Shown: piece after piece, positions 1,967 to 48,407 of the stretch
Position numbering within the stretch: position 1 is the stretch's first letter
How the letters are laid out: each line of letters opens with the position of its first letter
NCBI GenBank assembly: GCA_902802325.1
Contig: CADCLV010000003.1
Span: 68,026 to 132,025, forward strand
Direction of reading: 5' to 3'
From: Oscillospiraceae bacterium
Lineage (GTDB): Bacteria; Bacillota; Clostridia; Saccharofermentanales; Saccharofermentanaceae
DNA: 64,000 bases
Translations under genes and position numbers: made by a program
Notes under the pieces: generated by a model
Told to the model about the DNA's origin: nothing
The model's database searches: none
Seen by the model: the letters and a program-made list of their open reading frames with translations, nothing else

Positions 1967-2265
1967 GCCGACTACCCCAATTCTTCGAATGTTAAATCTA
2001 TTTTATCAGAATAAGAGGAGGCATATGGTGACAATCTTGTAACAGTTACGTATTACAGATTTGTAAACAATTTTCACCCGGATTTTGACTTCGGGAGAAA
2101 AAACGGAAGGAAAAGGAAAAAGCGGGAGGGAATAGAAGATAGCCGGAAATGCCCGAATTTCAGCACTTTGAAACATCTTCGAAAAGTCCGTGTAACACAA
2201 GCGTAACGTTTTGTGTAATGTGCACAAACGGGTGCGCGCGTTCGCGAATTTTGTTTGTAAAAATG

Positions 2266-2293
2266 TTGACAAACTTCTTGACCGTGCTATACT
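2266..2293 (+). promoter_or_regulatory. Sigma-A-type promoter driving the large ncRNA candidate
   Basis: TTGACA (2266-2271), 16-nt spacer, extended -10 TGc-TATACT (2285-2293). Confidence 0.6.
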
Positions 2294-2298
2294 GAAAC

Positions 2299-2957
2299 TA
2301 GCTCCAGGGAATGCGGGTTCACACCAAGTCCTACACGGAGAGCCGCCACAAGTGGATACACGAGGCGAGGCTGAAAAAAACAGAAAGACCAGAAAGTGGT
2401 CCGGAAACGAAAATGGAGAGCGCCGGAGATCCGATCCCGTGAGGTTGGATGGAGCGAAGGAAGTTGGAGCCGTCAGAGCCATAGTTGAAGCAAGTGGAGA
2501 GCGGACAGCGATTGACGGTACGCGATGGCGGACACAAATCGCAGGTCAGGTTTAAGACCTTGATCCACATACATCCTGACAGGCTGATAAAACGCGGTCG
2601 GATGGGGATCACGAGAAATGACAGGAGACGGGCTGGAACTGAGTAGGTTTCATAAACTGATCCAGATAAGGAGTTCGGGCATAGGGCCGGGACCAGAGAC
2701 ATCGGGTCAGAAAGGTTACGGAAAAGACGCCTCGGAGACGACATCATTTCGGGAACGGGCTGGTTGGAAAGGCAAGCTGCTACGTCAGGTGCTGAGTAAT
2801 TCCACGGTGAGGGTCGATGGACAGGATTGGAGAAGGTCCGTAGATAATAAAGGGCGACCGGGGAATTGGATGGAAAGTTGGTTCGCTGGAGCTATTATTT
2901 GTCCTCATACATTTATAAAAAACGGAGACCTATGACACCTCGGGTCTCCTTTTTTTG
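2299..2957 (+). ncRNA. Large (about 650 nt) candidate structured noncoding RNA of unassigned class (OLE/ROOL/GOLLD size range)
   Basis: It is bracketed by a near-consensus promoter and an intrinsic terminator. There is no credible ORF. The flanking genes are divergent and convergent, so it is not a leader or a 3' UTR. TAGCTCCAG at 2299-2307 is perfectly complementary to CTGGAGCTA at 2886-2894. The + strand is purine-rich and carries recurring motifs. Confidence 0.55.
2924..2957. terminator. Bidirectional intrinsic terminator (ncRNA on +, hpt on -)
   Basis: GGAGACC (2924-2930) pairs with GGTCTCC (2943-2949) and is followed by T7. On the opposite strand an A-run gives a U-tract after hpt. Confidence 0.8.
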
Positions 2958-2977
2958 TACGACGAAATCCTATTTGG

Positions 2978-3508
2978 TCAGTGATGCTCGATCTCGGCAA
3001 TGAAGGGGAGGTTTCGTCCGATTTCTCCATTATCCATGCCGTAGCCGATCAGCCAGCTTCTGTCAACTTCGAAACCATAATACTTGACTGGAAGATCGAT
3101 CAGCTGCCTGTCCGGATTATAAAGAAGCGTGCATACCTCTAATGAAGCCGGTTTTCTCGTTTCCAATGTCTGGAGAAGATAGGCAGTGGTAAGGCCTGTG
3201 CGGATGATGTCTTCGACTACGATCACGTGCTTGCCTGTGATGTCGATATCCACATCTTTTGTGATCCTTACGATCCCGGTAGCGCGGGTAGTGTCAGGGA
3301 TGCTGCTGATGCCGATCATGTCGACCATTACGGGCATTTTTGTTGCACGGGCAAGATCTGTCAGAAAGAAAAGAGAACCTTTCAGTACCCCCAGAAGGAG
3401 AAGATCCTGACCTTCGTAATCACGGGCAAGGGTCTTCCCAAGTTCTTTTACCCGGTTTTGCAGCTGCTCCTCGGTAAAAAGTATCTTTTTATACGAAATC
3501 TCTTTCAT
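2978..3508 (-). CDS. hpt: Hypoxanthine phosphoribosyltransferase
   Basis: 176 aa with the PRPP-binding motif VIVVEDIIRTGLT and typical Hpt N- and C-terminal sequence. RBS GGAGG. Confidence 0.9.
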   Translation of the reverse strand: MKEISYKKILFTEEQLQNRVKELGKTLARDYEGQDLLLLGVLKGSLFFLTDLARATKMPVMVDMIGISSIPDTTRATGIVRITKDVDIDITGKHVIVVEDIIRTGLTTAYLLQTLETRKPASLEVCTLLYNPDRQLIDLPVKYYGFEVDRSWLIGYGMDNGEIGRNLPFIAEIEHH

Positions 3509-3520
3509 TTACGGCCTCCG

Positions 3521-4480
3521 TCATTTATCCGCGTTTTCCTCGTCGGCGGGAAATGCACTGCCGCGGAGCCGCTCGGCCAGTTCGAGGAAATCTTTCTTAT
3601 AAACGATCTTTATGTGAATGCCCGGATACAGTTCACGGACTTTCTTCAGCTTGCGGTTCTTTTTATTGACGTATTTCTGGTTCATGGTCGTCAGTTCCAG
3701 ATAGGTGTCAAAACGTGTCAGATAAAAATCCGGACTGAAGGCCAGCGTGACATTTCCTTCGCTGTCCCATTCCACAGGGAAAGTCTTCGGTTCGTATCTC
3801 CACTCGATCTGGTACATATCCAGGATCCGGGCAAATTCCGCCTCCGAAGGATTTTTAAAAACAGGAAGGGATTTCTGGTGGTCCTTGGAACCTTCTTTTT
3901 TCGTTTCGGAGGTGATCCGGGAACGAAGAGAATGCTCTTTTACCGTGGAAAGGATAGCAGCTACGCACTCATCCACAGAGAGAAGACCGGTATTCAGAAC
4001 CAGGTGATAAAGTTCTTCGCTTGAAGAATCTGCGCCGAAAACATGGGATACGAAACGCTTGTGTTTCCGGTCGCGGGAAGCTAAAAGCTCTCTTGCTGCT
4101 TCTTCGGCCAGGTGAAACTGTTTGCAGATCCTGGTAAGACGCACCGCGTCCGGGGCGATGATCCGGACATGAATGGCATTACTGTTATCGGAAAGAAGGA
4201 TCTGAGAGCCGAATCCCAGTAAAATGGCCGAGTCTTTTTCAGACAGCTTAAGGAGCGAGTCGGAAAGAACATCCTTAAAGCTTTTTCCGTCCTTATATTC
4301 TGAAAGATAAAACTTGGCGCTTTCGGCCAGGTGGGAGCGCTGCTCGGCATTGATCTCGGGAAAAAACCGGTCCATCAAAAGATCACGGGTCAAAAGCTCC
4401 CAGCCTAATTTACTGCTTAAGGCGGAGGCTACTTCTTCTCCGAGACTTCCCATCTGTCGGGAGATCGTGATGATCGGCAT
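3521..4480 (-). CDS. Cytidylate kinase-like family protein fused to a C-terminal PD-(D/E)xK-like domain
   Basis: The N-terminus ITISRQMGSLGEEVA is typical of the Cytidylate_kin2 family. The C-terminal roughly 120 aa contains SPDFYL-x8-YLELT. RBS AAGGGGGAAAG. Confidence 0.65.
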   Translation of the reverse strand: MPIITISRQMGSLGEEVASALSSKLGWELLTRDLLMDRFFPEINAEQRSHLAESAKFYLSEYKDGKSFKDVLSDSLLKLSEKDSAILLGFGSQILLSDNSNAIHVRIIAPDAVRLTRICKQFHLAEEAARELLASRDRKHKRFVSHVFGADSSSEELYHLVLNTGLLSVDECVAAILSTVKEHSLRSRITSETKKEGSKDHQKSLPVFKNPSEAEFARILDMYQIEWRYEPKTFPVEWDSEGNVTLAFSPDFYLTRFDTYLELTTMNQKYVNKKNRKLKKVRELYPGIHIKIVYKKDFLELAERLRGSAFPADEENADK

Positions 4481-4494
4481 GATCTTTCCCCCTT

Positions 4495-4878
4495 TCAGTT
4501 CTTCTTTCTCAGCGTCAGTTTTCCGAACTGATTGACCTCGTACTTGGCGGCAAAGGCAGGATTGATCGCGGCAATTTCCTGATACGTGGCTTTGCCGTCG
4601 TTGACGTAGTTATAGGCAACGATCGGGTCGGTATAGATCTTTTTCTGAAAGTCTTTTTTGGCGATTTTGGCACCGATTTTACTTCCCATAAAGAAATAGA
4701 AGAAGATGGCCAGGGCAATCAGACCCAGTCCCAAGAGAACGAAAAGCGGTCCCATTTTCAATGCCAGAAGAAGAACAACGATGCCGCCCAGTCCGCAACC
4801 GTAGGCCAGAAGATCCATCAGGATCGCAAAAAGGGTGGCCTTGTTGGAGTACTGAAAAGAAGTAAAGATAAAGAACAT
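4495..4878 (-). CDS. Small integral membrane protein (hypothetical)
   Basis: 127 aa with 2-3 hydrophobic helices. It sits immediately upstream of the 3521-4480 gene in the same orientation. Confidence 0.5.
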   Translation of the reverse strand: MFFIFTSFQYSNKATLFAILMDLLAYGCGLGGIVVLLLALKMGPLFVLLGLGLIALAIFFYFFMGSKIGAKIAKKDFQKKIYTDPIVAYNYVNDGKATYQEIAAINPAFAAKYEVNQFGKLTLRKKN

Positions 4879-11829: not shown

Positions 11830-11869
11830 CTTCTTGCGCTTCGAGAGAAGCACTGGCAAACGATAGATG

Positions 11870-11945
11870 GAAGATTAGCTCAGCTGGGAGAGCATCTGCC
11901 TTACAAGCAGAGGGTCACAGGTTCGAGCCCTGTATCTTCCACCAT
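11870..11945 (+). tRNA. tRNA-Val (anticodon TAC), CCA encoded
   Basis: Cloverleaf read by eye: acceptor GGAAGAT/ATCTTCC, anticodon loop CTTACAA, T-loop GGTTCGAGCC. Confidence 0.9.
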
Positions 11946-11949
11946 CATG

Positions 11950-12025
11950 GCGCAGTAGTTCAGTTGGTTAGAATGCCAGCCTGTCACGCTGGAGGTCGAG
12001 GGTTCGAGCCCCTTCTGCGTCGCCA
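11950..12025 (+). tRNA. tRNA-Asp (anticodon GTC), CCA encoded
   Basis: Acceptor GGCGCAG/CTGCGTC, anticodon loop CTGTCAC, T-loop GGTTCGAGCC. Confidence 0.9.
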
Positions 12026-12026
12026 G

Positions 12027-12054
12027 GATAATCGGTCCGGAAGGACCGATTATC
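12027..12054 (+). other. Perfect 12-bp hairpin with a GGAA loop between tRNA-Asp and tRNA-Phe
   Basis: GATAATCGGTCC-GGAA-GGACCGATTATC. It is followed only by ATTT, so there is no real U-tract. Confidence 0.7.
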
Positions 12055-12058
12055 ATTT

Positions 12059-12134
12059 GCCCAGATAGCTCAGTCGGTAGAGCAGGGGACTGAAAATCCC
12101 CGTGTCGTTGGTTCGATTCCGACTCTGGGCACCA
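12059..12134 (+). tRNA. tRNA-Phe (anticodon GAA), CCA encoded
   Basis: Acceptor GCCCAGA/TCTGGGC, anticodon loop CTGAAAA, T-loop GGTTCGATTCC. Confidence 0.9.
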
Positions 12135-48324: not shown

Positions 48325-48407
48325 GCGGCGGTGGCGGAATTGGCAGACGCGCACGTTTGAGGGGCGTGTGGGCGACCATACGGGTTCAAGTCCCGTTCGC
48401 CGCACCA
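48325..48407 (+). tRNA. tRNA-Leu (anticodon GAG), type II with long variable arm, CCA encoded
   Basis: Acceptor GCGGCGG/TCGCCGC, D-arm GTGGCGGAATTGGCAGAC, anticodon stem CACGT/GCGTG with loop TTGAGGG, T-loop GGTTCAAGTCC. Confidence 0.85.

Follow-up and report, generated by a model that had tools for sequence, protein, structure and literature searches.

What is encoded between a divergent gene and hpt, the gene for hypoxanthine phosphoribosyltransferase, in the genome of an Oscillospiraceae bacterium (GCA_902802325.1, CADCLV010000003.1:68,026-132,025, forward strand), and to which class does the product belong? We analysed 64,000 nucleotides (nt) of this contig, referred to below as the window, and all coordinates are relative to it. 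An earlier note, made from the letters of the sequence alone, had proposed a candidate ornate non-coding RNA (ncRNA) gene of about 650 nt at this position. Bacterial RNAs this large and conserved are rare, and those known, such as ribosomal RNA, RNase P RNA, transfer-messenger RNA (tmRNA), group I and II introns, OLE, ROOL and GOLLD, are central machines or long-standing puzzles. Our data allow us to say with high confidence that ~2299-2957 on the + strand is a stand-alone gene for a highly structured ncRNA, and that this RNA is an expanded member of a family absent from Rfam 15 and from the literature that we searched.

The RNA gene and its conservation

Using hpt as a query against species-representative genomes, we obtained 18 rumen 'Clostridiales' metagenome-assembled genomes with an hpt of 75-79% identity. 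The entire 2200-2960 stretch was found in all 18, with position and orientation preserved (nhmmer E 1e-57 to 1e-110). A metagenome scan with a 21-base word from the best-conserved block added 10 contigs with full-length copies, so that the comparison with Clostridia genomes and metagenomes proposed in the earlier note yielded full-length homologs in at least 28 related rumen sequences; the promoter, the RNA body with its closing helix and the terminator are conserved in these.

To these sequences, reduced to 27 distinct ones, we applied RNAalifold, which gave a consensus of 106 pairs with standard pairing in 97% of the cells. Double changes were observed at 30 of the 106 pairs, compared to 17.3±2.0 in 500 column shuffles (none of which reached 30) and to 6-11 when the partners were slid by 1-3 columns. 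We dropped a brute-force screen of the same 27 sequences for stacked complementary columns in favour of RNAalifold and pair counts, because the sequence is rich in G/U wobble options and the screen was too noisy. The alternations between GC and GU and between AU and GU, which are frequent, fit the + strand only. In addition, the + strand folded better than its shuffles (minimum free energy (MFE) z-score -2.68), which was not true of the - strand (z-score -0.76). The + strand of 2299-2893 contains 64% purines versus 52% in the whole window, which agrees with the purine skew noticed before. Conservation, covariation and the lack of a coding signal described below all support the earlier proposal of a structured ncRNA.

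Stop-free stretches of up to 186 codons in the window copy could point to a protein-coding or decayed protein gene. However, they are not conserved and differ among homologs in length and frame, the variable columns show no 3-periodicity (162/157/147 by codon phase), and of 305 pairwise indels, 273 have a length not divisible by 3 and so break the frame. The ATG of a 43-amino-acid (aa) open reading frame (ORF) at 2311 is missing in several homologs, and no ORF overlapping the RNA region had a Pfam match. The earlier note had stated that these ORFs resemble no protein family and had named a conserved ORF as evidence against an RNA; the first agrees with our search, and the second did not appear in view of the flat phase counts and the frame-breaking indels. 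A DNA-level element, the other reading of this kind, is opposed by the strand-specific compensatory changes and G-U alternations and by the absence of tandem repeats in the RNA region. We therefore give a coding or DNA-level origin practically no weight.

The following elements delimit the gene:

2203-2232, no strand assigned: conserved upstream boxes, CGTAACGTTTTGT followed by TGCACAAA, ~35-95 nt upstream of the -35 hexamer
2266-2293, + strand: sigma-70-type promoter with extended -10; TTGACA at 2266-2271, a 16-nt spacer ending in TGc, and TATACT at 2288-2293
2299-2893, + strand: structured RNA body of ~594 nt from the predicted start; nhmmer E 1e-57 to 1e-110 against relatives
2894-2910, + strand: U-rich 3' tail after the closing helix P1, AUUAUUUGUCCUCAUAC; UUUGUCCUCA is conserved in the rumen clade
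2916-2957, + strand: intrinsic terminator; A run, GGAGACC at 2924-2930 with GGTCTCC at 2943-2949, and seven T at 2950-2956

The near-consensus promoter was present as previously described. It reached a promoter scan score of 11/12 with the extended -10 TG, and in 19 aligned sequences the spacer varies, with no change in the -35 or -10 hexamer. Every member of the RNA family introduced below has an equivalent promoter. We are confident that this is a strong, constitutive-type promoter, and that the predicted transcript of ~600 nt pairs its ends as P1.

The strong intrinsic terminator reported at 2924-2957 could likewise be confirmed in the sequence, with its stem and run of seven T; it is missing from the list of the scan tool because its loop is 12 nt long. 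Among homologs the stems differ in sequence but keep their complementarity. Since the hairpin is present in the MFE folds of both strands, is flanked by an A run and is located 20 nt beyond the hpt stop codon, it probably acts bidirectionally and ends both the RNA gene and the convergent hpt.

The upstream gene (1397-1966) is divergent, hpt is convergent downstream, and no gene on the same strand follows the RNA. Together with the conserved promoter and the terminator, this supports the earlier statement that the transcript is free-standing. A riboswitch, leader or 3' untranslated region element is excluded by the same features and the orientation of the neighbours, in the window as well as in the homologs.

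The upstream boxes are conserved in 18 of 18 rumen-clade genomes, and related AACGTT and TGCACAAAAAT boxes were found upstream of the RNA promoter in the more distant loci L095, L096, L103, L087 and L101. The first box, GTAACGTTTTGT, has a palindromic AACGTT core and the second reads TGCACAAA(AA). From their position, they may be a regulator binding site that serves either the RNA gene or the divergent one.

Family members and the common core

The earlier note had described the RNA as an orphan. This did not hold, as homologs are present in several Clostridia lineages, where the usual size is ~260-280 nt. To trace distant homologs we used nhmmer profiles or a hidden Markov model (HMM) of the family. 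Part of the sample consisted of 12 contigs (L095-L106) that were chosen via homologs, of 54-65% identity, of a 319-aa protein encoded next to hpt. Homologs with matching ends were found in L018, L019, L021, L087 and L095-L106. Compact (250-280 nt) and intermediate (~430 nt) forms adjoin hpt in Christensenellales, Oscillospiraceae, Clostridiaceae and other lineages. By size, these are 11 sequences of 250-280 nt, four of ~430 nt (L087, L096, L103 and L105) and one of ~610 nt (L095), and the window clade has RNAs of 585-600 nt plus three 400-nt deletion variants. The series from ~255 to ~600 nt marks the indispensable core, separates it from add-on domains, and provides ready-made minimal constructs for biochemistry and cryo-EM.

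In all 12 contigs from L095 to L106 the order is protein, hpt and a gene-free gap of 300-1000 nt, and in all 12 this gap contains an RNA with a TTGACA/TATAAT promoter, the 5' and 3' ends of the family and a U run. The metagenomic L087 carries a 428-nt version that is convergent with hpt and possesses a promoter and a terminator of its own. On the Christensenellaceae chromosome L019 we found a 255-nt AT-rich RNA (GCUCCAAGGAAU...GGUUCGUUGGAGC), and in the Oscillospiraceae locus L018 a 250-nt RNA (GGCUCUAGGGAAU...GGUUCGCUAGAGCC). The RNA of L021 was found by the family HMM 1.7 kb past hpt, behind other ORFs.

These loci bear on the idea that the RNA is a cis element of hpt, namely an antisense or terminator-associated RNA that acts by convergent transcription. 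Such a role would fit the convergent orientation seen in nearly all loci and the common bidirectional terminator 20 nt past the hpt stop. However, the RNA stops short of hpt without overlap, the RNA of L018 has the same direction as hpt and a promoter of its own, other ORFs separate the two in L021, and transcriptional interference does not need a covarying fold of 260-600 nt. We consider a cis element to be very improbable.

The fold of the window copy consists of these parts, all on the + strand:

2300-2312, + strand: 5' strand of P1, AGCUCCAG-G-GAAU, pairing with 2881-2893; invariant in the rumen clade
2881-2893, + strand: 3' strand of P1, GUUC-G-CUGGAGCU, pairing with 2300-2312
2337-2344 with 2853-2859, + strand: interrupted helix continuing P1, GG..GCC; pairs 2337-2338/2858-2859 and 2342-2344/2853-2855
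2346-2497, + strand: P3 stem and expansion domain 1; CCAC/GUGG, 2346-2349 with 2494-2497
2501-2506, + strand: 5' strand of P4, GCGGAC, pairing with 2836-2841; all cells pair in the rumen clade
2508-2542, + strand: P5 hairpin, GCGAUUGACGGUACGCGAUGGCGGACACAAAUCGC; almost invariant in the large forms, with 2 variable columns in 27 sequences
2544-2828, + strand: P6 arm, 2544-2547 with 2825-2828 followed by inner pairs; contains the optional domain as well as the GGUUGGAAAGG/GAGUAAUUCC module
2565-2751, + strand: expansion domain 2, optional, 187 nt; a long hairpin that is hypervariable, plus a branched unit with GAAAUG/CAUUUC as its closing helix, 2615-2620 with 2745-2750
2757-2804, + strand: conserved module; GGUUGGAAAGG, a hairpin, then CUGAGUAAUUCC, with invariant blocks and a covarying hairpin (helices 21-23)

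The two ends are joined as proposed. TAGCTCCAG (2299-2307) is perfectly complementary to CTGGAGCTA (2886-2894), this pairing is the closing helix of the MFE fold, and it covaries across the wider family. Among the 11 compact homologs, 7 of 14 P1 pairs covary, and the helix was also supported when we projected the window helices onto 14 non-rumen sequences. This projection likewise supported the interrupted helix beyond P1, the P3 stem and P4. The family consensus, RGCUCCAGGGAAU with GGUUCGCUGGAGCY, is kept by compensatory changes, and the window copy conforms to it. In the interrupted helix that continues P1 (GCC/GGC and GG/CC), GC to AU changes were observed both within the clade and across the family.

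When the 11 compact sequences were aligned separately, RNAalifold retained 23 pairs, comprising P1, P3 as a hairpin and the tip of P5. Double changes were present at 15 of these 23 pairs versus 6.0±1.6 expected (0/500 shuffles). In the compact homologs P3 is a plain hairpin (CCACAU-loop-AUGUGG), and the P5 tip is a short stem, mostly with a GAAA or GAGA loop, in which 3 of 3 pairs covary. P4 is mostly GCGAAA/UUUCGC across the family, with GC, AU, CG and UA variants. The base of P6 was supported in the family-wide projection; the P6 helix is nevertheless less certain, a local GGUU/GACC hairpin at 2549-2559 being an alternative. The helices formed by 2318-2331 with 2863-2875 hold in the rumen clade only, and the compact forms have local hairpins there.

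All core blocks of the family (ACGGARAGCCGCC, P3, GGARAGCGRA and UUCGCA..AAAGGGCRRCCG) are found in the window copy and can be aligned to the compact forms. With the same high confidence as for the gene itself, we describe a family core of ~260-280 nt that is composed of P1, the interrupted 5'/3' helix, hairpin P3, helix P4, hairpin P5 and arm P6. Equal confidence applies to the enlargement in the rumen clade, where P3 has become a 145-nt domain and P6 bears an optional 187-nt domain. Expansion domain 1 (2350-2493), the 145-nt multi-helix domain on P3, has double changes at 10 of 25 predicted pairs, and expansion domain 2 at 17 of 35. The latter is missing as a clean 187-nt gap from L001, L011 and L089. 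The 2757-2804 module is also found in L095, L087 and L103.

Other structural features that had been suggested for the RNA fared less well. Three further long-range complements (2361-2367/2728-2734, 2343-2348/2526-2531 and 2433-2438/2605-2610) do exist in the sequence, but the comparative data give these segments other partners, and one partner of the first pair falls in the domain that is missing from three homologs. GGAGAGC does occur three times, but a 7-mer present three times arises in 46% of dinucleotide shuffles, and conservation does not extend to the copy at 2415. Neither ACGGGCTGG nor TTGGATGGA is kept as a repeat in the alignment. Thus, comparative pairing and shuffle counts rule out the extra long-range pairings and the motif repeats as structural features. 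The other two GGAGAGC copies (GGAAAGC in most members) flank the P3 stem at 2337-2343 and 2496-2502, where ACGGAGAGCC precedes and GUGGAGAGCG follows it, making the junction pseudo-symmetric.

In compact homologs (e.g. L098 at ~4491-4505 and L097 at ~4531-4545, both on the minus strand) a U run follows immediately after the 3' strand of P1, and a separate terminator hairpin is missing. Judged by this arrangement, the closing helix may itself serve as the terminator stem in compact forms.

Comparison with known RNA classes

We scanned the 64-kb window with 4,227 Rfam 15 models (cmscan), and at gathering thresholds only four tRNAs were detected. The same thresholds were used on L018, L019, L021, L087 and L095-L106, and a relaxed limit of E<=10 was applied to 2000-3100 of the window (with permissive filters) and to the RNA regions of L018 and L019. 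Nothing relevant was found in 2000-3100, and the homologous loci gave only tRNAs or noise. None of the models that the earlier note had suggested for comparison (OLE, ROOL, GOLLD, HEARO and raiA) matched at the gathering threshold or at E<=10. As no model matched at either threshold, the RNA does not qualify as OLE, ROOL, GOLLD, HEARO, raiA, 6S, signal recognition particle or RNase P RNA. A search of the literature gave no description of this RNA. The RNA class is therefore new in the sense that it lies outside Rfam 15 and that no paper on it was found; this newness concerns the RNA class, and the mechanism discussed below is hypothetical.

OLE is the class that invites comparison by its length of ~600 nt, its occurrence in anaerobic Bacillota, its stand-alone nature and its near-invariant nucleotides between covarying helices. 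OLE acts as a ribonucleoprotein (RNP) with the OapA, OapB and OapC proteins, which are encoded nearby (PMC9723947, PMC12265935). However, RF01071 was unmatched even at E<=10, the conserved sequences are different, and the window RNA has hpt and a kinase/nuclease-like gene as neighbours. The neighbours comprise an ABC ATPase, hpt, the PF13189 protein described below and two small membrane proteins without a Pfam match. Moreover, the RNA has its own promoter and terminator, and its family varies 2.4-fold in size.

ROOL and GOLLD are also large ornate bacterial RNAs, and ROOL was first seen in rumen metagenomes. They are often located near phage or tRNA regions. In contrast, the window RNA is chromosomal, single-copy and syntenic with hpt, and neither Rfam model matched. 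The raiA motif, too, is a stand-alone structured Bacillota ncRNA with a 5'/3' closing helix and a fixed gene neighbourhood (PMC10861870, PMC12968392). The hpt-linked RNA differs from it by another neighbourhood, a larger core and lineage-specific domains, and the raiA model matched neither the window nor the compact homologs. An omega RNA of the HEARO/IscB type was rejected since there was no model match and no adjacent IscB/HNH ORF.

RNase P RNA and group I introns resemble the family in having a constant core around which different lineages have acquired or lost peripheral helices or domains inserted into hairpins, but there is no homology. The best RNase P hit was to class B, with 12 bits against a gathering threshold of 97 and over model positions 172-222 only, and was rejected. 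As in tmRNA with SmpB and Y RNA with Ro60, a stable end-paired RNA is encoded beside the gene of a protein partner, the partner being a presumed one in our case. Unlike tmRNA, the RNA has no tRNA-like or tmRNA features, and ARAGORN predicted no tRNA or tmRNA gene in 2000-3100.

6S RNA was rejected because no match was obtained at E<=10, and because it is a rod of ~150-200 nt with a large central bubble whereas the hpt-linked fold is branched, with side hairpins, and 250-600 nt long. This comparison is relevant to a possible function as a trans regulator or sponge, which would titrate a global protein, as 6S and CsrB do, or pair with mRNAs, with GGA/GGAG motifs as decoys. The strong conserved promoter suggests an abundant RNA, GGA/GGAG motifs are numerous, and a conserved pyrimidine tail (UUUGUCCUCA) follows P1, all of which would suit a sponge. 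On the other hand, no 6S- or CsrB-type model matched even at E<=10, the branched consensus fold is neither a central-bubble rod nor a string of GGA hairpins, and the threefold GGAGAGC is within chance. The potential to pair with the adjacent operon at its 5' region did not exceed random expectation in 8 loci (z -1.3 to +1.5). On balance, a trans regulator or sponge seems unlikely.

The neighbouring protein and the possible role

Two genes on the opposite strand accompany the RNA:

2978-3508, - strand: hpt, hypoxanthine phosphoribosyltransferase (TIGR01203, 165 bits, cut-off 150); found beside the RNA in every locus of the family
3521-4480, - strand: 319-aa protein, encoded upstream of hpt; cytidylate-kinase-like domain (PF13189) at the N-terminus, PD-(D/E)xK-like domain at the C-terminus

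The N-terminal domain of the 319-aa protein gave a confident structure model that matches 3hdt/3fdi and nucleoside monophosphate (NMP) kinases. Foldseek with the full protein model returned kinase matches only, and a sequence-profile search of the PDB matched the N-terminal domain only. Conservation within the protein is highest in the C-terminal domain of ~110 aa. When this domain was modelled alone (predicted local distance difference test score 85), its best PDB matches were all PD-(D/E)xK nucleases, namely PvuRts1I, Vsr, T7 endonuclease I, I-Bth0305I and VRR-NUC, each weak at E 0.05-0.5. Stand-alone versions of the domain, 105-200 aa long, are widespread in other phyla (P0121-P0240), namely Actinomycetota, Chloroflexota and Acidobacteriota, and one source names this protein a PDDEXK nuclease. 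In L035, a stand-alone PD-(D/E)xK-like protein is encoded directly upstream of hpt (3566-3955, + strand). From gene order, this protein and hpt look like an uncharacterised gene pair that would reach beyond Clostridia. A PADLOC search gave no match for the PF13189/PD-(D/E)xK-like protein or for hpt, and only generic ABC-ATPase similarity for the transporter subunit.

The RNA and a homolog of the 319-aa protein were found together in 12 of the 12 loci fetched via the protein and also in L018, L019 and L021. In 58 hpt loci without the protein, the family HMM did not detect the RNA. Given this strict co-occurrence, an RNP of a trans-acting RNA with the kinase/nuclease-like protein would be the most economical reading, which we put forward tentatively. 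The locus thereby provides a specific and testable candidate protein partner in several Clostridia orders. Work on the RNA and work on the protein could inform each other, as the nuclease-like domain is an uncharacterised one with high conservation (50-68% identity across phyla) and a link to hpt of its own.

In this proposal the RNA would act in trans as a stable folded molecule and would be an RNP component together with the NMP-kinase-like/PD-(D/E)xK-like fusion protein encoded two genes away. Binding or activity would reside on the surface of the conserved core, which the lineage-specific domains would stabilise from the periphery, as they do in RNase P or group I introns. With hpt as a constant neighbour, the role of the RNA could be connected to purine-nucleotide handling. 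As a whole, the structured RNA gene combined with the RNP proposal is our best explanation of the locus, with a probability of roughly 0.4. A bolder version is more doubtful: the window RNA might be the ornate form of a novel type of bacterial RNP, in which an RNA of 260-600 nt serves the fusion protein as an obligate partner (guide, scaffold, substrate or allosteric subunit) and both take part in housekeeping linked with purine salvage. Alternatively, the RNA itself might be a new ribozyme or a self-assembling RNA.

Several points weigh against the proposed RNP. The transcript ends are predictions from sequence, and RNA and protein are linked by gene neighbourhood only. All carriers are related Clostridia, so that shared ancestry could yield the co-occurrence, and the sample is biased towards presence of the protein because L095-L106 were fetched via it. 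No RNA was detected beside the stand-alone C-terminal-domain gene and hpt in L035, thus the protein does not depend on the RNA everywhere. The length of the protein does not follow the expansion of the RNA. Furthermore, the fold matches of the C-terminal domain (E 0.05-0.5) are not significant, and the usual P-loop lysine is missing from the N-terminal domain according to its sequence. As a partner of the RNA the protein is a candidate of low confidence.

The RNA might instead work alone, as a ribozyme or an architectural RNA that is perhaps multimeric, as reported for ROOL, GOLLD and OLE, with the hpt/protein neighbourhood as inherited synteny. Near-invariant junction and loop nucleotides beside freely covarying stems would be expected from such a machine, as would peripheral domains that are gained and lost around a constant core. 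The 64% purine content would be compatible with many A-minor contacts, and homo-oligomeric assemblies of large bacterial RNAs are documented (PMC12286853). Against it, no self-complementary conserved loops were identified, although no systematic search for them was made, the context suggests neither a chemistry nor a substrate, and the strict co-occurrence with one protein gene across orders would be left unexplained. An RNA-only machine is possible, but we rate it lower than an RNP with the kinase/nuclease-like protein.

A minor observation concerns a 4.7-kb phage contig (L092, the same as L094; IMG/VR UViG_3300020072_000089). Its final 121 nt (4619-4739) are identical to the middle of the L087 RNA (1533-1653). 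The shared 121 nt start 6 nt past the stop codon of a phage ORF, and the contig encodes a major head protein (phrog_11589). The junction is either a prophage joined inside the RNA gene or a chimeric assembly. tRNA and tmRNA genes are known phage integration sites, and in this respect the RNA would resemble tmRNA, unless the junction is an assembly artefact. When viral contigs were searched with the phage side of the junction, only the same contig was found, and a search of 50,697 phage records with the RNA gave no match. A 22-nt word, TGACGGTACGCGAAGGCGGACA, upstream of a membrane-protein ORF in the unrelated metagenome contig L086 (1437-1458) was rejected as probably due to chance, having no other similarity to the RNA. 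The tRNA genes of the window are ordinary and are all on the + strand, three of them clustered at 11869-12131 and one at 48325-48404.

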